Below are positions 4,674-43,420 of a DNA stretch of 64,000 nucleotides, one piece after another. The translations under genes and the position numbers were made by a program. The notes beneath the pieces are model-generated. The model ran no database searches. It was given only the letters and a program-made list of their open reading frames with translations, and was not told the origin of the DNA. The DNA comes from Candidatus Krumholzibacteriota bacterium (GTDB lineage: Bacteria; Krumholzibacteriota; Krumholzibacteriia; JAJRXK01), in contig CAVSGG010000001.1 of the NCBI GenBank assembly GCA_963727455.1, forward strand, positions 32,001 to 96,000, given 5' to 3'. Every line of letters begins with the position of its first letter. The first letter of the stretch is position 1.

Positions 4674-5701
4674 GGCTTCTCCGTGAATTCACTCGTGTCC
4701 ACGGTCACGACCGCGGAAAGGCCCAGGCGCAAACGGCATCCGTTCACGCTGCTATCGTCCAAGGCGATGCGCACCGGGAGGCGCTGCACCACCTTTACCC
4801 AGTTCCCGCTCGCGTTTTCTGGAGGAAGCAGGGAAAAGGCCGCGCCCGTCCCCGCGCTGATCGCTTCGACCTTGCCCTTCAACTCGTAACCCTTGTTGCT
4901 GTCGATGTGGATCGTCGCGGGATCTCCCGGGCGGATGCGGCGCAGCTGGGTCTCCTTGAAGTTCGCGTCGACCCAGAGGTGTCCTGCATCCAGGGGAACC
5001 ACCTGGCACAGGGGCTGACCCGTCGCCACTACCTGTCCCGACTGGGCGGACTTGTCGGCCAGCATGCCTTGGCAGGGCGCGACGATGGTGCAGTAGGACC
5101 TTCGGAGCAGCGCAGTATCATGGGCGGCCCCTGCCTTCTGCAGCTCGCGGCGCGAGACTTCCAACTTGGCCTTGGCCGCCTCGAGTCCTTTCCGCATGGC
5201 TTCCAGGCGTGCCTGCGCCACCTCGGCCTGCGTCTTCACCTCGCTGAAGCGGTGCTGCGGTACCGATCCGCGCTCGCTCAGCTCTGCGTAGCGTTGGCGG
5301 TCGGCATTGCTCAGTTCGCTCTCGCTCTGTGCTGCAGCGATCTCCGCACGCGCTTGGGCCACGCCCGCCTCGTCCAGGGCGAGGGTGGCTTTGGCTTTTT
5401 CCACCTTGGCTTCACTCTCCGCTACCGCTTGGTCGAAGTCTCGCGGATCGAGGCGAAAGAGCACTTGCCCCTCCTTCACTTGCTCGTTTTCGCCGACCAG
5501 GACATTCTGAATGGTCCCTGGAACCCGGCTGGCGACGGTGCTCACGTCACCGCCCACGTAGGCATTGTCGGTCGTGGGAAAGATTTGTCCGTGGTGCCAG
5601 TGTCTCCATCCCAGGGCGACGACCACGAGCGCGAACAAGATGATTGTGAGCAATCCGATCGTTCTGCGTTTCATCTCAGTGTGCTCCTCGTCTTGCGACA
5701 T
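4670..5701 (-). CDS. emrA: HlyD/EmrA family membrane fusion protein
   Basis: TDNAYV, WVDANFKETQL and FSLLPPENASGNWVKVVQRLPVRI motifs. Confidence 0.92.
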   Translation of the reverse strand: MSQDEEHTEMKRRTIGLLTIILFALVVVALGWRHWHHGQIFPTTDNAYVGGDVSTVASRVPGTIQNVLVGENEQVKEGQVLFRLDPRDFDQAVAESEAKVEKAKATLALDEAGVAQARAEIAAAQSESELSNADRQRYAELSERGSVPQHRFSEVKTQAEVAQARLEAMRKGLEAAKAKLEVSRRELQKAGAAHDTALLRRSYCTIVAPCQGMLADKSAQSGQVVATGQPLCQVVPLDAGHLWVDANFKETQLRRIRPGDPATIHIDSNKGYELKGKVEAISAGTGAAFSLLPPENASGNWVKVVQRLPVRIALDDSSVNGCRLRLGLSAVVTVDTSEFTEKP

Positions 5702-7553
5702 CCGCGTAGAACTCGGCCGGATCTTCTCCCGCCGTGACCAAGAGTCGCGCCTGATTCCAGTAGCTTTGGTAGTGTCGCGTGATCACCGTGTAACGGCTGT
5801 CCGCGAGAAGGACCTCTGCGTCCAGAACGTCGCTGGAACGCGCCAAACCCGAGCGGTACTGATCTTCCACGATCTGGAGGTTCGTGCGCGCCGCGCGAAC
5901 GTTGTCCTGCGCGGTCGCTTCTTCCCGCAGAGATTGCTTCCACTGCCGCCAGGCCGAGTCCACCGCAACACTCACCCCGCGGCTCACGTCCTTCAGACCC
6001 TGCGTGGCGCGCGCAATTTCGGCCTGAGCCTTTGCGATCTTGGCCTTGCGAGCGCCACCCTCGAACAGATTCCAGCTCATCCCCGCCACCACGGCGTTGA
6101 CGTGCGGGTACGCCATGTAACGGTTTTCTTCGTAACTATGACCGAGACTCAAGTAGATTTCGGGCCAGTACTCGCGGTGTGCGAGCCGTTCTCTCGTACG
6201 CGCCTCCTGCAAGCGCGCCCTGAGGGTTTGCAAGTGTGGGTTTTGGTCGCTCGCGGCGCGAATCAACCCGTCGCACGAAGCATCGAGCATCGGGGCCGGA
6301 CCCAAGGAATCCGGGAGGCTCAGCTCGGCGGAGATTTCACGCCCCAAGATTCGGTTGAGGTCTTGGGTGGCCGAGACGCGCGCGTCCTTCAACTCCTGCA
6401 CCGCATCGTCGATCTCGCGCTCACGCACTTGCGTCTCCAGCAGGTCATTGCGCGCCACCAAACCCTGATCGTACAGGTCCTGGGCAACTTTGCGGTGCGC
6501 GGATACTGCGGCGTGCCGTTGCCTGAGGACGGCGGTCTGGTCCTGCAATCGCAGAACCTGGAGATACGCTGACAGGGCGTCGAGTTGGGCCTGGCGAATG
6601 GAGGCCCAACTCGAAGCTTCGCTCGCCTTCGCACTCTGTCTGGCGGCCTCGACCGAAAGCTTGCGCCGCCCCCCATTGAAGAGGGTCTCCTTCAGGTGGA
6701 TTCCGTAAGCTGCGTTGCTCTTCTGTGCAAAGGGAAAACGCTCGCTTCCGAAAACTGCCTCCACCGGATTGTCGCGTACGGTGTACGAGGCGTCCGCGTC
6801 GATCCGTGGCCACCAGGAAGCTGTGGCGCCTCGAATCTCGGCCTGGGCCTGGAGCGAATCGAAGGGTGCGACGCGTGCGGCGAGAGAATGACGCTCGGCC
6901 AGAACGAGAACCCGGGGCAGTGTCATGAGGGTGTCCGCCCCAGCGGCCTTGGCCAGCGTCACTTCCTGTTGGCTGGCCTCGTTGGGGCCCTGGCTCGCTC
7001 CGAGATGGAGAGTTTCCGCCCGCGTGCCGCGCGCCGCGAAGAAGAGGATTGCGGCCAACAAGATCCAGAGGTGCTTGGCCCTTCCGTGCTTGCTGGGGCA
7101 CGGTCCTCTGTCGCGTTCGACGCTTTCCATCGCGTTGGTCGCCATGCGACTGAGTAGAAGTCCCACTTCCTTTCGCTGCGCGGCGGTAAATCCCTCGGTG
7201 AGAACCCGGTTCCACGACTGCAAGTCCTCTACGATACGCGGCCATCGGCGCCGCGCCTTGGCGGTGAGGAGGATGCGGCGAGCCCTGGCATCCCCGCGAT
7301 TCGCGAGGCGCCGCACATAGCCTTCCCGCTCGAGCGTGCTCAAGGACCGGGTGGTGGCACCGCGATCCATGTGGAGACGGGCTGCGAGTTCCTCTTGGGA
7401 AATGTCGTCCCCCTCCCGGACGAGCGTTCCCAAGAAAAAGAGGTGGTTCTTTCCTATGCCATGCGGGCGCAGGCGTCTCCGTGCAAAGCGGCTGGCGCAG
7501 CGATCGATGATGGAAATCCAGCGTCCGAGCGACTCTTCCGGCTTGTAGTCCAT
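5676..7553 (-). CDS. MarR family regulator fused in frame to a TolC family outer membrane efflux protein
   Basis: aa 1-140 MarR wHTH (SQEELAARLHMDRGATTRSLSTLEREGYVRR..DAR); internal signal-like segment; TolC repeats (WWPRIDADASY, LFNGG, LFEGG, YRSGLARSSDVLDAE); SD AGGAG. Confidence 0.85.
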   Translation of the reverse strand: MDYKPEESLGRWISIIDRCASRFARRRLRPHGIGKNHLFFLGTLVREGDDISQEELAARLHMDRGATTRSLSTLEREGYVRRLANRGDARARRILLTAKARRRWPRIVEDLQSWNRVLTEGFTAAQRKEVGLLLSRMATNAMESVERDRGPCPSKHGRAKHLWILLAAILFFAARGTRAETLHLGASQGPNEASQQEVTLAKAAGADTLMTLPRVLVLAERHSLAARVAPFDSLQAQAEIRGATASWWPRIDADASYTVRDNPVEAVFGSERFPFAQKSNAAYGIHLKETLFNGGRRKLSVEAARQSAKASEASSWASIRQAQLDALSAYLQVLRLQDQTAVLRQRHAAVSAHRKVAQDLYDQGLVARNDLLETQVREREIDDAVQELKDARVSATQDLNRILGREISAELSLPDSLGPAPMLDASCDGLIRAASDQNPHLQTLRARLQEARTRERLAHREYWPEIYLSLGHSYEENRYMAYPHVNAVVAGMSWNLFEGGARKAKIAKAQAEIARATQGLKDVSRGVSVAVDSAWRQWKQSLREEATAQDNVRAARTNLQIVEDQYRSGLARSSDVLDAEVLLADSRYTVITRHYQSYWNQARLLVTAGEDPAEFYADVARRGAH

Positions 7554-24277: not shown

Positions 24278-26116
24278 TCATGCGCTCGCGCCGGACAGGG
24301 CTCTTTTTTCCGCCAGCGTTTTCGGGGCGTTGCGATGAATCTGCCAGGTCTGAACGATGGAGAGGATCGTATTGACCAGCCAATAGAGCACAAGGCCCGA
24401 GGGAGTATTATAGAACACGAAGAGCATGAAGATGGGCATGAAGGTCGACATCATCTTCTGCTGCGATGCCATCGCGCCCTCGCCGCCCGTGGCGGCGCTC
24501 GGTGTTCCGATCTTCGTCTGCAGCCACATCCCCGCGGCCATCAGAATGGGCAGAAGAGAGAAATGATCTCCGACCACCGGCAATTTCAATGGCAGATGAA
24601 AGAGCACCTCGGGCCGCGAGAGATCGTTGATCCAACCCCAGAATGGAGCCTGTCTGACTTCGATCGTGTTCCGCAACACAGTGAACAGGGCCCAGAAGAC
24701 CGGCATCTGCACGAGCAAGGGCAGGCACCCCGCCATGGGATTGATGCCGTGCTCCTTGTAGAGCTTCATCATCTCCTTGCTCTGCCGTTGCTGATCGTCC
24801 TTGTACTTCTCCTTGATTTTGCTGAGTTCGGGTTGCACGAGCTGCATCTCGCGCATTGAGCGCGTGCTGCTCTTGGTCAGCGGATAAAAGAGAAACTTTG
24901 TGGCGACCGAGATCAGGATGATCACGAGACCGTAATTCGGAATGAAGCGATGCAGATACAAAAGGAGCCACAGCATGAACTTCGATACGGGCCGGAAAAC
25001 GGCGGGGCCCAAATCGATGAGCGCAGTGAGTGCGGGATCGATCTCGTTCAGTTCGTTGTAATCGCGGGGGCCCAAGAACACCGAGTAATTCAGTCCCGGC
25101 CCCGTCTCGTCCTGTAGTGGTAACTCGATGCTGAAAGTCTGGAGCTCTTTCGCGTAGTCCCCATCGAAGTGCACGTGCCCGAGGCGACGCCCTGGATCGT
25201 GGACGAAGGCCGTGAAGTACTGTCCCATGACGCCGGCCCACGCGACGGTTCCCTCGTGGTCTTTGCGTCCGCCCGAACCGTCTCCCTTTTTCAAGGAATT
25301 GAACGAGGTCTTGTAGGTATCGTCTCCGACGCGCGCGGCCGCTTTGAAGTCTCTGTACTCGCGCGTCGTGTCCGGTTCGGTGTTGGAGATCCCCGAAGGC
25401 CACGAGATCTTCAGCTGCGCCAACTCGGTGCGTGGAAGTTCGTACTTGGCGTGCACGCTGAACGAAGAGAGCTCGTTGTCGAGGCGAATCCTCAGAGAGA
25501 AGGGCGTGCCTCCCTCGAGCTGCGCGCTGAGCGTGATTTCGGCGATAGGCCTCTCCGCGTCGACCCGCACGCGCCAGGGGTTGTGAGGATCTCCGGTGCT
25601 CATCAATCGGGCCCCTTCGGCCTTGAACCTGACGTGGCTCAGGTCCACGACTTTGTTGTCGCGGTAGATCTTCAGCGCGTGCGCGCGCTGGCCGTAGGGG
25701 TCGAGACTGCGCTTGGGAATGAGCTGGACTGGCTGGCCATCGACGGTCTTGAAGTTCTTGAGGGTCCACGAACGAAGATCGGCGCCCACGAGGTCTAGCT
25801 CCGCCACGTACTGCTCGGTTTCCAGGGTGACGAGGGGCCCTTCCGCGGAGGCCTCCAATTGGATTCCGCTTTGGGTGCCCATGCTGTCTGTCGTGGCAGC
25901 TTGCGTGGAGTCAGTCCGCGCGCTCGTGTCGCTTTGTGAGGTGTACGGAGTGTGCGTCGCTTTGGCGGGAGCCGTTTGGGTGGGAGCTTGGGCAACCGCA
26001 AGGCTGTCGCTCTGTCCGGTCTTCTGAGTGTCTTGTGGTGAAGGCGAGAACATGGCCTGCCAGATCAGCAAAACCACGAACATCAGAAAGAAAGCGAGCG
26101 CCGTGCGCTGATTCAT
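24278..26116 (-). CDS. yidC: Membrane protein insertase YidC
   Basis: NYGLVIIL, GINPMAGCLPLLVQMPVF, PSGLVLYW. Confidence 0.96.
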   Translation of the reverse strand: MNQRTALAFFLMFVVLLIWQAMFSPSPQDTQKTGQSDSLAVAQAPTQTAPAKATHTPYTSQSDTSARTDSTQAATTDSMGTQSGIQLEASAEGPLVTLETEQYVAELDLVGADLRSWTLKNFKTVDGQPVQLIPKRSLDPYGQRAHALKIYRDNKVVDLSHVRFKAEGARLMSTGDPHNPWRVRVDAERPIAEITLSAQLEGGTPFSLRIRLDNELSSFSVHAKYELPRTELAQLKISWPSGISNTEPDTTREYRDFKAAARVGDDTYKTSFNSLKKGDGSGGRKDHEGTVAWAGVMGQYFTAFVHDPGRRLGHVHFDGDYAKELQTFSIELPLQDETGPGLNYSVFLGPRDYNELNEIDPALTALIDLGPAVFRPVSKFMLWLLLYLHRFIPNYGLVIILISVATKFLFYPLTKSSTRSMREMQLVQPELSKIKEKYKDDQQRQSKEMMKLYKEHGINPMAGCLPLLVQMPVFWALFTVLRNTIEVRQAPFWGWINDLSRPEVLFHLPLKLPVVGDHFSLLPILMAAGMWLQTKIGTPSAATGGEGAMASQQKMMSTFMPIFMLFVFYNTPSGLVLYWLVNTILSIVQTWQIHRNAPKTLAEKRALSGASA

Positions 26117-27443: not shown

Positions 27444-27509
27444 GTCCCTGTGAAGTTGTGTCCTCTGGTCGAGCTTTGCCCCTCGACCCAACGAGAGGAA
27501 GCCCCACTC

Positions 27510-28916
27510 GTGCCCCCTTCTCGAACGACGCCCGCGAATCACACCCAACATGATTCTCTGCGGGACGAGCAAACGCTCTGGACGGAAATCCTCGAAGTTG
27601 TGCGCCAAAACGTCAATCAGCAGACTTTCGAGACTTGGTTTCGCCAGACCCATTTCCTCTCACTGCGCGAGGGGGTCCTCGCCATCCAGGGGCCCAACCA
27701 GTTTTTCGTCGATTGGCTGACGGAGCACCACCTGGAAACTCTGCGCGCGGCGGCCCAGCGGATTCTGGGCCGGAGCATCGAAATCCAGATTTTGGTCGAT
27801 CCGCAGCCCAGCACGGTCGGGAGCTTCGATCCGAGGGCCTCGGTCAGCCCCGCGCCCGAAGCCGACGGCCGGCGACGCACCCCGCGCGAGGCGGGTCTCA
27901 ACCAGCGCTATGTCTTCTCGAACTTCGTGGTGGGAGATAACAATCGCCTGGCGCACGCGGCCTGCGAGGCCGTGGCGGAGCAGCCGGCCCAAGCCTACAA
28001 CCCGCTCTTTCTCTACGGCGGAGTGGGCCTGGGCAAGACCCACCTCATGCAGGCCATTGGCAATGAAGTCCTCACGCGCGACCCACGGACCATGGTGCAC
28101 TACGTCTCGGCCGAAAACTTCATGAACGAACTCATTCAGTCCATTCGCAGCGGGAAGACCTTCGAATTCAAGAACCGCTACCGGAACGTCGACCTGTTGC
28201 TCATCGACGACATTCAATTTCTCGCGGGGAAAGAGAGCACCCAACAGGAATTCTTCCACACGTTCAACGCGCTCTACGATGCCAACAAGCAGATCGTGGT
28301 GACCTGTGACCGGCCACCCAAGGAGATTCCCACTCTGGAGGAGCGGCTTCGTTCGCGCTTCGAGTGGGGATTGATCACGGATTTGCAGGCGCCGAAGCTC
28401 GAAACCCGGATCGCGATTCTCAAGAAGAAGGTGGAGAAGGAAGAAATCGTAATCCCCGACGAAGTTCTGGTGCTCATCGCCGAACGTGTGACGAACAACA
28501 TCCGTGAATTGGAGGGCGCGCTGATCCGGCTTCTGGCCTTCGCCAGTCTGACGGGAAGCAAGATCCACATCGAGATGGCAAAGGAGGTATTGAGCACCTT
28601 TCTGAACCGCAATCGTCCCAAGCGTCCGGTTTCTCTGGTAGAGGTAACCAAGGCGGTGGCTGGGTACTACGATATCTCCTTGGATCTCTTGCGCTCCAAG
28701 ACTCGCACCAAGCCCATCGCCCATGCTCGGCAGATCGCCATGTACCTGTGTCGTGAGCTGACTGGTGCTTCCCTGAATCAGATCGGTATGCGCTTCGGAG
28801 GGCGTGACCACACCACGGTGCATCATGCGTGGCAGAAGATCACGCGTCTGGAGGAAATCGATCCCGACGTACACTCCGAGCTCGAGGATCTGATCAAGTC
28901 GTTGCATAGCGCGTGA
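27510..28916 (+). CDS. dnaA: Chromosomal replication initiator DnaA
   Basis: YNPLFLYGGVGLGKTHL, LLIDDIQF, RSRFEWGL, GGRDHTTV; GTG 27510 with SD GAGG preferred over 27450. Confidence 0.97.
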   Translation: MPPSRTTPANHTQHDSLRDEQTLWTEILEVVRQNVNQQTFETWFRQTHFLSLREGVLAIQGPNQFFVDWLTEHHLETLRAAAQRILGRSIEIQILVDPQPSTVGSFDPRASVSPAPEADGRRRTPREAGLNQRYVFSNFVVGDNNRLAHAACEAVAEQPAQAYNPLFLYGGVGLGKTHLMQAIGNEVLTRDPRTMVHYVSAENFMNELIQSIRSGKTFEFKNRYRNVDLLLIDDIQFLAGKESTQQEFFHTFNALYDANKQIVVTCDRPPKEIPTLEERLRSRFEWGLITDLQAPKLETRIAILKKKVEKEEIVIPDEVLVLIAERVTNNIRELEGALIRLLAFASLTGSKIHIEMAKEVLSTFLNRNRPKRPVSLVEVTKAVAGYYDISLDLLRSKTRTKPIAHARQIAMYLCRELTGASLNQIGMRFGGRDHTTVHHAWQKITRLEEIDPDVHSELEDLIKSLHSA

Positions 28917-31686: not shown

Positions 31687-33998
<2,312 letters not shown>

Positions 33999-34010: not shown

Positions 34011-36485
34011 ATGGCGGAAGAATTCAAAGAGCGAATTCAGACGGTAAACATTGAAAACAAGATGAAGTCCGCGTATCTGGACTATTCGATGTCCGTGATC
34101 ATATCGCGTGCCCTTCCCGACGTTCGCGACGGACTAAAGCCGGTACATCGGCGAGTGCTCACCGCGATGAACGATCTGAACCTCTCGCCGGGCCGCCCCT
34201 ATCGCAAGAGCGCGAAGATCACCGGTGACACCACGGGTAACTATCATCCACACGGAACCGCCGCGGTTTATGACACCCTGGTGCGCATGGCGCAGGATTT
34301 TTCTCTGCGCTATCCCCTGGTAGACGGTCAGGGAAACTTCGGCTCCATCGACGGAGACAGCCCGGCGGCCGAGCGATACACCGAAGCGCGTCTGGCTCCG
34401 TTCGCGATGGAGCTGTTGCAGGATCTCGACAAGGAAACCGTCGACTTCATTCCCAACTACGACGGATCGCGCGAGATGCCCTCGGTTCTTCCCAGCGCCA
34501 TTCCCAATCTTCTGGTGAACGGAAGCACGGGCATCGCGGTGGGCATGGCCACCAATTGTCCTCCGCACAATTTGTGCGAGATCGTGGACGGACTGATCGC
34601 GCTGCTCGACGACCCGGAGCTGGAAGCCATCCAGCTCTTGGACCACGTGAAGGGCCCCGACTTCCCTACCGGCGGGATCATTCACGGGCGGCAGGGCATC
34701 ATCGATTACATCGCGACGGGACGCGGCCGCATCGTGATGCGCGCACGCTGCGAATACGAAGAGCTCAAGAATGGCCGCGAAGCGATCATCGTCACCGAGA
34801 TTCCCTACTACGTGAACAAGTCGGAGTTGATCCAGAAGATCGCCCAACACGTGCGCGCGGGGATTATCGAGGGAATCGCCGATCTGGCCGACGAGAGCGA
34901 CCGCAAGGGAATGCGCATCGTAATTCAACTGAAGAAGGACGCGCATCGCGACGTGGTACTCAACCAGCTCTTCAAACACACAAACCTTCAGTCGACCTTT
35001 GGCGTCAACAGCATCGCTCTGGTGGGTACGCAACCGAAGCTTCTGAGCCTCAAGGACATGATGTCCGAGTACTTGAAGTTTCGCGAAGAGGTCGTGGTTC
35101 GAAGAACGGAATTCGAATTGCGCAAGGCCGAAGCGCGCGCGCACATCCTCGAGGGTTATCGTATCGCGCTGGAGAACATCGACGAAGTCGTCGAACTCAT
35201 CAAGAAGAGCCCGGATGGGCCGACCGCCCGAGAGCGCCTCATGGAGCGCTTCGAACTCAGCGAGGTCCAAGCTCAGGCCATTCTCGACTTGCGTCTGCAG
35301 AGACTGACCGGCCTCGAACGCGACAAGATCGAAAAGGAGTACCTGGAACTCATTCAGGAAATCGAAAGACTGCGCAGCATTCTCGCCAGCCGCAGTATGC
35401 AACTCGGCATTATCCGGGACGAACTGCTCGAGGTACGCGAGAGATTCGGGGACGAACGCCGCACCGAGATCGTGGATGTGGAGGGGGAACTCTCGATCGA
35501 AGATCTCATTCCCGAGGAAGACATGGTGGTGACCATCAGTCACGGTCAGTACGTGAAGCGGCTGCCGGTCGACACCTATCGCCTCCAGGGCCGCGGTGGA
35601 CGTGGTGTGACGGGCGCGAGCTTGAAGGACGAGGATTGGGTCGAGCACCTCTTCGTAGCCAACACGCACCAGTACCTGTTGGTCTTCACCAGTAGCGGCC
35701 GCTGCCATTGGCTGAAGGTACACCAGATCCCCCAGGCGGGCCGCGCCGCCAAGGGCAAGGCCATCGTGAATCTTTTGGCGCTGGAACGGGAAGAGTTGGT
35801 GCGCGCCATCGTGCCCGTGCCGGGAGAGTTCGACGAGAATCATTACGTGCTGTTTGTCACCGAGGCGGGACTGGTCAAGCGGACCTCGCTGGATCAGTTC
35901 TCCAACATTCGCCGCTCGGGAATCCGGGCCATCGACATCGTCGAGGGGGACCGCCTCATGGGCGCGGCGCTCACCGACGGCAGCACCCACGTGATCCTCG
36001 GCGTGAGGTCGGGAAAGTCGATCCGCTTCGACGAGAACGACGTGCGGCCCATGGGGCGCACCGCCCGCGGAGTGAAGGGAATCGAGCTCTCCTCGGGCGA
36101 CGACCGCGTGGTGGGGATGATCGTGACCGACCCCAACGAAGAGGTCAGCGTGCTCTCGGTGACCGAGAACGGGTATGGCAAGAGAACTCCGCTGACGGAG
36201 TATCGCCCGCAGGGTCGCGGGGGCAAGGGCATCATCACCATGAACATCACCAAGAGGAACGGTCCTCTGGTGGGAGTCCAGCTCGCGCGCGAGGAGGACA
36301 GCCTCATGGTGATCACCCGCAACGGGATCGTGATCAAGATGGCCATGGAGAGCATCTCCAGCATGGGCCGCAACACCCAGGGCGTCCGACTCATCAACCT
36401 GGACGAGGAGGATGTGGTGGCCACGGTGGCGCCGGTTGCGGAGAACTCCGAGCTGGAAGCGGAGGGCGAGGACGACGCGGAATAG
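34011..36485 (+). CDS. gyrA: DNA gyrase subunit A
   Basis: [21 protein letters not shown], GyrA-box QGRGGRG. Confidence 0.97.
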
Positions 36486-41832: not shown

Positions 41833-41862
41833 TTGACACCCCCCAAGGCCCGCGATTAGCTT
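41833..41862 (+). promoter_or_regulatory. Sigma70-type promoter for tRNA-His/hisS
   Basis: TTGACA (41833), 18-bp spacer, TAGCTT (41857), just upstream of the tRNA. Confidence 0.55.
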
Positions 41863-41874
41863 AGACGCCCACGT

Positions 41875-41951
41875 GCTGGCGTAGCTCAGCTGGTTAGAGC
41901 ACCAGATTGTGGATCTGGGGGTCGGTGGTTCGAATCCACCCGCCAGTACCA
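41875..41951 (+). tRNA. tRNA-His(GUG), non-canonical: no encoded G-1, G1:U72, A73
   Basis: Cloverleaf: GCTGGCG TA GCTC-AGCTGGTTA-GAGC A CCAGA-TT GTG GA-TCTGG GGGTC GGTGG-TTCGAAT-CCACC CGCCAGT A CCA. Confidence 0.95.
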
Positions 41952-41992
41952 TGCATCCTCCCTCGGCCTTTGAGGGCCCCGAACTCTTGCTC

Positions 41993-43420
41993 ATGGCAAA
42001 GCGTATCGAAGCCAAGCTCGCCAAGGGAATGCGCGACATCGTCGGCGCGCCGATTCGGCGTAGACAGCGTATGATCGAGACCGTTCAGGGTGTGTTCGAG
42101 CGCTTTGGCTTCCAGCCCCTGGAAACGCCCGTCATCGAGGCCCGAGAAGTACTCGTGGGCGCCAAGGCCGGCGAGACCTCCCAGCGCATCTTCAGCTGGC
42201 GGCACGAGGAGGAGGATGCGGAGCTGGGGCTCCGTTTCGATCTCACCGTGCCTTTGGCGCGCTTCGTGGCCGCGCACCCCGAGCTGCGGCGGCCCTTCAA
42301 GCGCTATCAGGTGGGACCGGTCTTTCGGGTGGATAAGCCGGGCGCGGGGCGCTTTCGCGAATTCCTGCAGTTCGACATCGATACGGTGGGCAGCCGGTCC
42401 ATGTTGGCCGACGCTGAGATCCTGGGCGCGATGAGCGAGGCTCTGAGAGCGCTGGGGCTGCCCTCGCACACCATTCGCTGGAACCACCGCGGCGTACTGA
42501 ACGCCGCCCTGCGCCGCGCGAAGATCGAGCCCAGCCGGGCCGCCGGCGTCATTCGCATTCTGGACAAGGAAGACAAAATCGGAATCGAAGGGGTACGGGC
42601 GGAACTGGGAGGAGGGCGCATCGACGCGGAATCGGGCGCACCCATCCCCGGCCTCGGCCTCCCGGAGCCACAGATCCACGCACTGGGCGAGTTCCTCGAG
42701 CTGCATGACGAGACGGATGACGGGCTGGTCGAGAAATCCAAGCGCTTCTTGGCGGGCACGAAAAGCGCCGAGGCGGCACTGAAGGAAATCGACGAACTCA
42801 GGGCCCATCTGGAAGTCATGGGTTGCGCCGAGCGGGTGCGCTTCTCGCCCAATCTCGCGCGCGGGATGGACTACTACACCGGCCCCATCTTCGAGGCCAC
42901 GCTCGATGAGCTGCCCGACTATGGATCGATCATGGGCGGAGGCCGCTACGACGAGCTCGTCTCCCGCTTCAGCGGCGAGCAGTTGCCCGGAGTGGGGGCC
43001 TCGATCGGGGTCGACCGCCTGCTGGCTGCGCTCGATCAACTCGAGAGCCGCAAGCAGAGCGGGACGGTCACCGAAGTGCTCGTTACCACGATGGACCGCA
43101 AGCTTACCCTTACTTACCAGGCCCTGGTTCGCGAGCTGCGCGAGGCCGGGCTGAATGCGGAAATCTATCTGAATCCCAAGGCGCGTCTGGGTGATCAGCT
43201 CAAGTACGCGTCCTTCTGGCAAATTCCCTATGCCGTCATCGTGGGCGAGGACGAGCTGAAGGAAGAAAAGGTCACGATCAAGGATCTCGAGGAAGGCGCG
43301 CGCGCGGCTTCCAAGATGGACGATCGGGCCGAGTGGGTCGAACAACGTCCCGGACAGTTCTCATTGGATCGGGCGAGTTTGATTCCGACCCTCAAGAAGC
43401 TTCTCGGGCACGGAGGCTGA
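41993..43420 (+). CDS. hisS: Histidine--tRNA ligase (divergent, Caulobacter/Rhizobiales-like type)
   Basis: KGMRD, LRFDLTVPLARF, FRVDKPGAGRFREFLQFDID, LARGMDYYTG, GGGRYDEL, GASIGVDRL. Confidence 0.95.
   Translation: MAKRIEAKLAKGMRDIVGAPIRRRQRMIETVQGVFERFGFQPLETPVIEAREVLVGAKAGETSQRIFSWRHEEEDAELGLRFDLTVPLARFVAAHPELRRPFKRYQVGPVFRVDKPGAGRFREFLQFDIDTVGSRSMLADAEILGAMSEALRALGLPSHTIRWNHRGVLNAALRRAKIEPSRAAGVIRILDKEDKIGIEGVRAELGGGRIDAESGAPIPGLGLPEPQIHALGEFLELHDETDDGLVEKSKRFLAGTKSAEAALKEIDELRAHLEVMGCAERVRFSPNLARGMDYYTGPIFEATLDELPDYGSIMGGGRYDELVSRFSGEQLPGVGASIGVDRLLAALDQLESRKQSGTVTEVLVTTMDRKLTLTYQALVRELREAGLNAEIYLNPKARLGDQLKYASFWQIPYAVIVGEDELKEEKVTIKDLEEGARAASKMDDRAEWVEQRPGQFSLDRASLIPTLKKLLGHGG

Follow-up and report, generated by a model that had tools for sequence, protein, structure and literature searches.

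A guanosine at position −1 (G-1) of tRNA-His is among the most conserved tRNA identity marks, with G-1:C73 near-universal in bacteria, and its loss has been taken as a phylogenetic character, among other things for the placement of SAR11. A G-1-independent pair of tRNA-His and histidyl-tRNA synthetase (HisRS, the product of hisS) was reportedly described in alphaproteobacteria by Ardell and Andersson in 2006 and by Wang et al. in 2007. In the literature, G-1 is presented as lost once, in a single clade of alphaproteobacteria, and the system is given as restricted to alphaproteobacteria in Yuan 2011 (PMC3064791), Mukai 2020 and the Giege 2023 review. In the pair from Caulobacter crescentus, of the alphaproteobacterial RRCH clade, HisRS charges a tRNA lacking G-1; a U72C change costs about 91-fold and anticodon changes 91- to 1000-fold, an added G-1 costs 5-fold, and the tRNA-His of Escherichia coli is charged 250-fold less well (PMC3064791). 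Here we report a locus of this kind from a Candidatus Krumholzibacteriota bacterium (assembly GCA_963727455.1), located in a stretch of 64,000 nucleotides (nt), hereafter the window, that covers positions 32,001 to 96,000 of contig CAVSGG010000001.1. The locus comprises a tRNA-His gene without an encoded, paired G-1 and, shortly downstream, hisS. The evidence supports its assignment to the known G-1-independent system of histidine identity, as a member from outside Alphaproteobacteria, and we consider it very probable that the two genes are a horizontally acquired cassette, which constitutes a complete alternative histidine identity system and has displaced the canonical pair. A full-text literature search returned no report of the system outside alphaproteobacteria; subscription journals and supplementary files were largely outside its scope, and a prior mention is possible.

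The tRNA-His(GUG) gene occupies positions 41875..41951 on the forward strand, where it was the sole tRNA that ARAGORN found in the window, as tRNA-His(gtg), and it was matched by Rfam RF00005 at 41875-41948 (71.5 bits, E 1.1e-15). Numbering from the sequence and a tRNA alignment placed G1 at 41875 and U72 at 41947, forming a G:U pair, with C2:G71 next to it, A73 at 41948 and CCA encoded at 41949-41951. The −1 base is T (41874), and the gene has no G at −1 able to pair with position 73. A preliminary description of the window, made from the sequence alone, had proposed precisely such a G-1-less tRNA-His, with G1:U72, A73, an encoded CCA and T at −1, and ARAGORN, Rfam and the numbering agreed with it on every point. 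It had also considered that reads might show a C at 41948, and none was seen in the contigs of other public runs covering that position (runs X1, X3 and X4), which gave no alternative letter there; contigs from X1, X2 and X3 likewise span 41874, with the only listed differences at 41844, 41867 and 41871. Of the runs used for this base check, X1 is possibly the source sample itself. The tRNA thus resembles that of the RRCH-clade pair (Yuan 2011, PMC3064791) in having no paired G-1, in A73, G1:U72 and C2:G71, and in a D-loop, AGCTGGTTA, of 9 nt including U20a. C2:G71 was present in 42/42 unique G-1-less tRNA-His sequences that we collected, and the nine-nt D-loop with U20a is not exclusive to this type, being found also in some other members of the class (hereafter class-mates) with canonical tRNA-His.

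The assembly is a metagenome-assembled genome (MAG) of 3.46 Mb in 18 contigs, with 88.85% completeness and 6.68% contamination, and the window lies on a contig of 130.7 kb. Its 39 tRNAs include one tRNA-His, which alone among them combines G1:U72 with A73, and C73 occurs in none (0/39). The preliminary description had pointed to a second tRNA-His, a second hisS or thg1 as things to look for in the genome; a single hisS exceeded the TIGR00442 cut-off, and the Thg1 family (PF04446) gave no match in this assembly at its 88.85% completeness. On contig C5, a frame of 694 aa gave weak hisS matches below the threshold; it presumably encodes some other class II synthetase. The same picture was obtained with the nine other genomes of the window's family, f1, which are 93-99% complete. 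The host is not an alphaproteobacterium, since the named relatives of its GyrB are Candidatus Krumholzibacteria/-ota/-iia (65-69% identity) plus one Gemmatimonadales label, and since a HisRS 95% identical to that of the window carries the label Candidatus Krumholzibacteria; the placement of the host outside Alphaproteobacteria, first surmised from the window alone, is thereby borne out.

The hisS gene (41993..43420, forward strand, stop codon 43418-43420 included) starts with an ATG at 41993, leaving the 41-nt spacer after the tRNA CCA that had been noted before, and encodes a HisRS of 475 aa that trees place in the G-1-independent clade. The protein matched PF13393 at residues 12-343 and PF03129 at residues 362-451, and passed TIGR00442 with 363.6 bits (cut-off 286.75). 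We also considered HisZ, the ATP phosphoribosyltransferase regulatory subunit, which is a HisRS paralogue and has a homologous catalytic-core fold in common with the window enzyme; this identity was rejected, as TIGR00443 reached 182.9 bits (cut-off 271.65), the anticodon-binding domain is full, and the gene is the only hisS of the genome. The motif-2 loop, RVDKPGAGRFREF (residues 112-124, 42326..42364), has Gly117 in the alignment column where canonical enzymes have Gln. That Gln was found in 0/55 members of the G-1-less clade defined below versus 16/16 bacterial-type enzymes (Proteus and class-mates), and it is also kept by most other eukaryote-like HisRS outside the clade. Following LDKxDKxG, the insertion domain is lengthened at about residues 205-222 (GGGRIDAESGAPIPGLG, 42605..42658); by residue counts in the alignment, the median length of the region corresponding to residues 186-222 is 36 residues for the clade, as against 24 for other eukaryote-like enzymes and 17 for bacterial-type ones. 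A further insert of about 19 residues (approximately residues 436-454, ARAASKMDDRAEWVEQRPG, 43298..43354) lies inside the anticodon-binding domain, within the PF03129 match, and for the region of residues 428-456 the median length is 29 among clade members versus 11 in both other groups. Of what the preliminary description had recognised in this protein, the divergent motif-2 loop and the LDKEDKIG...GGGRIDAESG insert were indeed present, the former without Gln and the latter exceeding its counterpart in relatives outside the clade by about 12 residues, whereas the supposed C-terminal extension turned out to be the insert within the anticodon-binding domain, after which the tail aligns with ordinary HisRS. 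One family f1 member (G005, loci L043/L045) has a hisS of 509 aa in one open frame that the query matched in two pieces, which suggests an extra internal insertion of some 30 residues.

Compared with the described systems, the window HisRS is like that of the RRCH clade in lacking the motif-2 Gln (Gly here), in its anticodon-domain insert and in its longer insertion domain, and it falls into one clade with the enzymes of Rhodobacterales, Hyphomicrobiales, Parvibaculaceae and Rhizomicrobium. The inserts of alphaproteobacterial-type HisRS are described in PMC3064791 and PMC3245924, the anticodon-domain insert having been proposed as the likely anticodon reader in the discussion of Yuan 2011 (PMC3064791), and Amrine 2014 (PMC3937112) treats Gly for Gln in motif 2 as a derived trait of alphaproteobacteria, covarying with the tRNA. 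The window pair differs in that its host belongs to Krumholzibacteriota, outside the taxonomic range given in the literature, a restriction that is not a mechanistic one, and in that its HisRS is 38-41% identical to the alphaproteobacterial enzymes and sits in another subclade. Its motif-2 loop reads DKPGAGR rather than EKPGPGR as in alphaproteobacteria. Its tRNA-His lies directly upstream of hisS, whereas none was present within the fetched flanks of 15 alphaproteobacterial hisS loci, and two Rhodobacterales loci show hisS-hisZ-hisG instead. Canonical HisRS, as of E. coli and Thermus thermophilus (PDB 1KMM, 4RDX), has the same class IIa fold family, the same domains (PF13393 and PF03129), the same anticodon and common catalytic motifs such as ARGMDYYTGP and GGGRYD; those PDB chains gave only 107-113 bits, however, the motif-2 Gln of canonical enzymes is missing from the window enzyme, and their tRNA has G-1:C73 encoded. 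The best PDB matches were instead eukaryote-like HisRS (human 4G84/4PHC, chain 6NHI and Nostoc 3NET, at 224-201 bits). Bacterial eukaryote-like enzymes outside the clade do not have the two inserts, and they go with an encoded G-1 and C73 in 22/24 genomes with a recovered tRNA, the exceptions being a Thermoguttaceae and a Lutibacter MAG.

Within the class, for which 41 genomes were sampled, each genome had exactly one hisS over the cut-off. The window HisRS type was found in 11/41 (E<=1e-30), namely in all ten genomes of family f1 and in G029 of another family, and the other 30 had ordinary bacterial HisRS. In 11/11 carriers a tRNA-His with G1:U72 and A73 was located directly upstream of hisS, the −1 base being T in ten and G in one. 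Use of the window tRNA as a DNA query outside family f1 mostly caught tRNA-Arg and tRNA-Pro, and we therefore repeated the search with a canonical tRNA-His and then with a covariance model; by the query with canonical tRNA-His, a gene of that type, with an encoded G-1, G1:C72 and C73, was verified in 17 of the 30 other genomes. In the phylum sample of 208 genomes, 14 had the window HisRS type, distributed as 10/10 in f1, 1/12 in f6, 2/43 in f4 and 1/13 in f8, with none in the five other families, and a linked G-1-less tRNA-His directly upstream of hisS was present in 14/14 of them, including three beyond the class sample. The linked tRNA and synthetase unit that the preliminary description had seen at a single locus is thus the rule among the phylum's carriers. 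Genus g18 was mixed, with the cassette in G029 and, in G104 and G105, canonical hisS (430-434 bits) together with canonical tRNA-His, the latter within a Pro-Arg-His..Lys tRNA cluster (loci L044 and L257-L262 compared). An intact Pro-Arg-His..Lys cluster was searched for and not found in G029, where these tRNAs are dispersed and the Lys copy lies near a contig start. As a separate observation on acceptor ends, several class-mates whose HisRS is canonical (L014-L018, class family f3) have a tRNA-Arg(CCG) with G1:U72 and A73, the very end that marks tRNA-His in the window genome, and the window genome's own tRNA-Arg(CCG) (contig C10, 158842-158918) has G1:C72; it is a speculative thought that its tRNA set has perhaps accommodated to the new HisRS.

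To follow the system beyond the phylum, one genome per species was queried with an alignment of the window HisRS type, giving 80 named loci. Thirteen of these had a G1:U72/A73 tRNA-His just upstream of hisS, from Thermoanaerobaculia (six), an Acidobacteria MAG, Blastocatellia, Planctomycetota, Acidimicrobiales, Microthrixaceae, a 'Bacteroidetes' MAG and an unclassified bacterium. We searched 29 further genomes with the tRNA-His covariance model R1, every match of which was re-typed with ARAGORN because R1 was not specific (other tRNAs scored >70 bits). A tRNA-His was recovered in 25 and none in four, and those recovered were G-1-less in 21, A73 variants in two and canonical in two. The 21 comprised Bryobacterales (three), Hydrogenedentota (two), Nitrospiraceae, Iamia, Planctomycetota (two), an Acidobacteriota MAG, 'Chitinophagales' and Ignavibacteriota MAGs, an unclassified bacterium, six alphaproteobacterial MAGs and two 'Proteobacteria' MAGs. 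A Sinorhizobium meliloti record was also of the G-1-less type. A set of 30 genomes with HisRS free of the inserts yielded a tRNA-His in 22 cases and none in eight; 20 of the 22 were canonical, one had G-1 with A73 (Thermoguttaceae) and one had C73 without G-1 (Lutibacter). Carriers of the clade thus include Krumholzibacteriota, Acidobacteriota, Planctomycetota, Acidimicrobiia, Nitrospiraceae, Hydrogenedentota and others.

Some of these genomes showed arrangements of their own. The two A73 variants in the G-1-less clade, from a Planctomycetales MAG (L195, HisRS L119) and a Planctomycetaceae MAG (L196, HisRS L113), have G1:C72 in one case and U1 opposite U72 in the other; if these are real, U72 or the G:U pair would not be obligatory in all clade members. 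In the Lutibacter MAG (L140 3886-3962, L229), the only recovered tRNA-His has C73, G1:C72 and T at −1 and lies directly downstream of hisS, and its HisRS retains the Gln of motif 2 and, in the quick tree, falls in a group adjoining the G-1-less clade; C73 with no G-1 encoded is possibly a third arrangement. The Thermoguttaceae MAG (L226, HisRS L158) has an encoded G-1 with A73, a eukaryote-like combination, and a HisRS outside the G-1-less clade. In one Thermoanaerobaculia MAG (L125), two tandem G-1-less tRNA-His genes (2064-2140 and 2314-2390) precede one hisS and differ by one compensated anticodon-stem pair.

The phylogeny of HisRS divided along the same line as the tRNA types. In a quick tree of 116 rows (LG+G4), built after removal of a truncated copy from Stenotrophomonas and of the 15 hisS loci of class-mates for which no tRNA had been verified, one clade (SH-aLRT 99) contained 46/46 verified G-1-less rows, both of the A73 variants, seven rows whose tRNA type is unknown, and 0/38 rows with verified canonical tRNA, while the class-mates' enzymes grouped with Proteus in a distant bacterial-type clade (100). 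A careful tree of 62 rows (LG+C20+F+G4, supports as ultrafast bootstrap/SH-aLRT), omitting 16 bacterial-type rows, Bacillus, Haladaptatus and near-duplicates, recovered the G-1-less clade at 100/99 and the window's family f1 at 100/100. Family f1 fell into a subclade with Acidobacteriota, Hydrogenedentota, Nitrospiraceae and some Planctomycetota (90/91), and a second subclade (100/100) held the alphaproteobacteria and G029; within it, Alphaproteobacteria were monophyletic (97/90) and joined Acidimicrobiia (98/91). The G-1-less clade as a whole was nested among bacterial 'eukaryote-like' HisRS. Caulobacter was represented in both trees by the stand-ins Rhodobacterales, Hyphomicrobiales and Parvibaculaceae. 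The grouping of the window HisRS with alphaproteobacterial G-1-independent enzymes rather than with canonical ones, anticipated from its motifs, was thus recovered in both trees, but the label of a 'Caulobacter/Rhizobiales-type' enzyme holds just for the overall clade, since the window enzyme is not nested among the alphaproteobacterial ones and belongs to the sister subclade with Acidobacteriota and others. Forcing the 31 non-alphaproteobacterial rows into one clade was rejected (log-likelihood difference 115.8, p-AU 7e-12, for a group chosen once the tree was known). When the three additional phylum members were included, the G-1-less-type enzymes of the phylum took at least four positions in the tree (SH-aLRT 95-100). 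The topology would not settle donor versus recipient, as donations from a stem alphaproteobacterial lineage would fit the same branching. As an added finding, these analyses show that the system is one HisRS clade spread over many phyla, frequently as a linked tRNA and hisS unit, which appears to have repeatedly displaced the canonical pair.

Upstream of the tRNA lies TTGACA (41833..41838, forward strand), a candidate −35 box for tRNA-His and hisS. Since CTTGACAC was invariant in 8/8 aligned upstream regions of family f1, with flanks otherwise diverged, TTGACA is the likely −35 box of a tRNA-hisS transcript, and it would drive joint transcription of the two genes. A weak candidate −10 hexamer, TAGCTT (41857..41862), was picked out by eye at an 18-nt spacing, below the scan threshold; the T at 41857 and that at 41861 were invariant in the same eight-genome alignment. 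The TTGACA promoter candidate of the preliminary description is present, though it is found upstream of the tRNA and not between the tRNA and hisS. By eye we also noticed a hairpin in the tRNA-hisS spacer, CCCTC-GGCCTTT-GAGGG at 41960-41976, without a following T-run and partly kept in the closest genomes, which could be a processing or attenuation element.

We read the locus as a two-gene translation unit of promoter, tRNA-His and, 41 nt on, hisS. RNase P would cut the tRNA at the normal +1 position, because nothing at −1 pairs with A73 to lengthen the stem, and the mature tRNA would start at G1 without G-1. T is the commonest −1 base among the genome's tRNAs (16/39), which fits ordinary +1 cleavage, and U-1 is the usual leader base for bacterial RNase P. 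The synthetase would have lost the motif-2 Gln used on G-1:C73 and gained the anticodon-binding-domain insert, and would read the GUG anticodon, U72 (in G1:U72) and A73, following the rules of the C. crescentus enzyme in vitro. By analogy with the work on the C. crescentus pair (PMC3064791), we infer that the window pair would be orthogonal. An ancestor of family f1 probably took up tRNA and synthetase together by horizontal transfer, whereupon the acquired pair would have displaced the canonical HisRS and G-1:C73 tRNA-His still used by the rest of the class; the same cassette seems to have entered the phylum at least four times and to occur in many other phyla. Co-transfer of the tRNA with the enzyme is favoured by its foreign likeness and the constant linkage. 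Over positions 8-65, a comparison that spans only 58 positions and is weak phylogenetic evidence, the window tRNA body shares 90-92% identity with the G-1-less tRNA-His of MAGs from Thermoanaerobaculia, Acidobacteria and Ignavibacteriota, versus 64-81% with the canonical tRNA-His of class-mates; that the tRNA travelled together with HisRS is suggestive only.

Besides the shortness of that comparison, several points weigh against this reading of the locus. According to a later study (PMC7590224), a different alphaproteobacterial HisRS depends mainly on G1:U72/A73 and less on the anticodon, so that the balance between anticodon and G1:U72/A73 may differ in the window pair, and with 38-41% identity to the characterised enzymes the recognition rules may differ in detail here. 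A G at −1 is encoded in one f1 genome (G007, opposite A73) and in one Thermoanaerobaculia MAG, where an unpaired G-1 could be kept. Canonical tRNA-His was not recovered by DNA query in 13 of the 30 class-mates. The window MAG is without several expected tRNAs, and its assembly may have missed a further tRNA-His or a Thg1-like gene. The taxon labels of the 'Chitinophagales' and 'Bacteroidetes' MAGs may be binning errors. A consensus scan upstream of the tRNA-hisS unit found no full sigma-70 site at threshold, and no RNA run carrying the locus was found, which leaves the mature 5' end and co-transcription to inference.

One rival explanation is that the pair is ancestral to Krumholzibacteriota or a wider group, was replaced in most lineages and was kept by family f1. 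Its presence in 10/10 f1 genomes, and the single 100/100 clade formed by the f1 enzymes, do indicate that the pair is old and vertically inherited within that family, but we regard such an origin for the phylum as very unlikely: just 14 of the 208 phylum genomes carry the pair, the four lineages concerned lie apart in the tree, each beside the enzymes of other phyla, both states occur in one genus, and the canonical enzymes of class-mates form a coherent clade of their own (100, quick tree). It is to a similar degree improbable that the tRNA gains a 5' G, or keeps U-1, post-transcriptionally and that the synthetase depends on the extra 5' nucleotide, as in eukaryotes, which add G-1 via Thg1. 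This explanation draws on the 'eukaryote-like' nature of the HisRS (201 bits with the human cytoplasmic enzyme versus 107 with that of E. coli), on A73 being the eukaryotic discriminator, and on U-1 being able in principle to pair with A73. Thg1 (PF04446) was, however, absent not only from the window genome but from all 41 class genomes, in a search that detected the Methanosarcina control, and the Gln that reads G-1:C73 is lacking throughout the clade (55/55), while the Gln-keeping relatives just outside it also keep an encoded G-1; in one tested member of the alphaproteobacterial branch, moreover, G-1 lowered efficiency 5-fold (PMC3064791, Table 1).

More improbable still is that the resident tRNA-His and HisRS mutated in situ to the A73/U72/no-G-1 state, without gene transfer. 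Convergence is conceivable, as alphaproteobacterial A73 identity is perhaps convergent with that of eukaryotes according to Mukai 2017 (PMC5370408), but the window HisRS is 26-28% identical to the enzymes of class-mates and 42-48% to those of Acidobacteriota and other clade members, has the two inserts in common with the clade, and lies in a different deep branch from class-mates in the quick tree, and the tRNA body, too, is nearer to foreign G-1-less tRNAs than to class-mates' tRNA-His. Least credible of all is an assembly or binning artefact by which the contig or cassette came from another organism, for in spite of the contamination of the MAG the cassette lies on the 130.7-kb contig near dnaA, gyrB and yidC, with a GyrB that has Krumholzibacteriota relatives, the arrangement recurs in nine other f1 genomes, and another hisS occurs in no f1 genome.

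The preferred reading, that of a horizontally acquired cassette, can be extended to the system at large, although here our judgement is evenly balanced. The G-1-less identity system would then be a horizontally mobile tRNA-His and hisS module across phyla and not an alphaproteobacterial invention or synapomorphy, able to replace a resident G-1:C73 system even within a genus, with alphaproteobacteria as one recipient lineage in which the genes later became unlinked.

In the window, the cassette is located in the replication-origin neighbourhood, about 5.4 kb beyond gyrA, and the gene order is yidC (24278-26116, reverse strand), dnaA (27450-28916, forward), gyrB (32046-33998, forward), gyrA (34011-36485, forward), a methyltransferase gene, pntB, pntA, tRNA-His, hisS and genes for a GDSL hydrolase and an MBOAT acyltransferase. 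Elsewhere in the window, a 625-aa open frame (5676-7553, reverse strand) combines a MarR-type HTH (residues 31-91) with an outer-membrane efflux protein domain (residues 430-604), and may be either two genes merged by the crude open reading frame call or an unusual fusion.

The clade described here advises caution in using the G-1-less trait as a clade marker. It would also greatly enlarge the choice of HisRS/tRNA-His pairs that genetic-code engineering could consider as candidates for orthogonality to the E. coli type, and its carriers may serve as natural test cases for the swapping of an essential tRNA identity rule, in which both partners would have been imported together.

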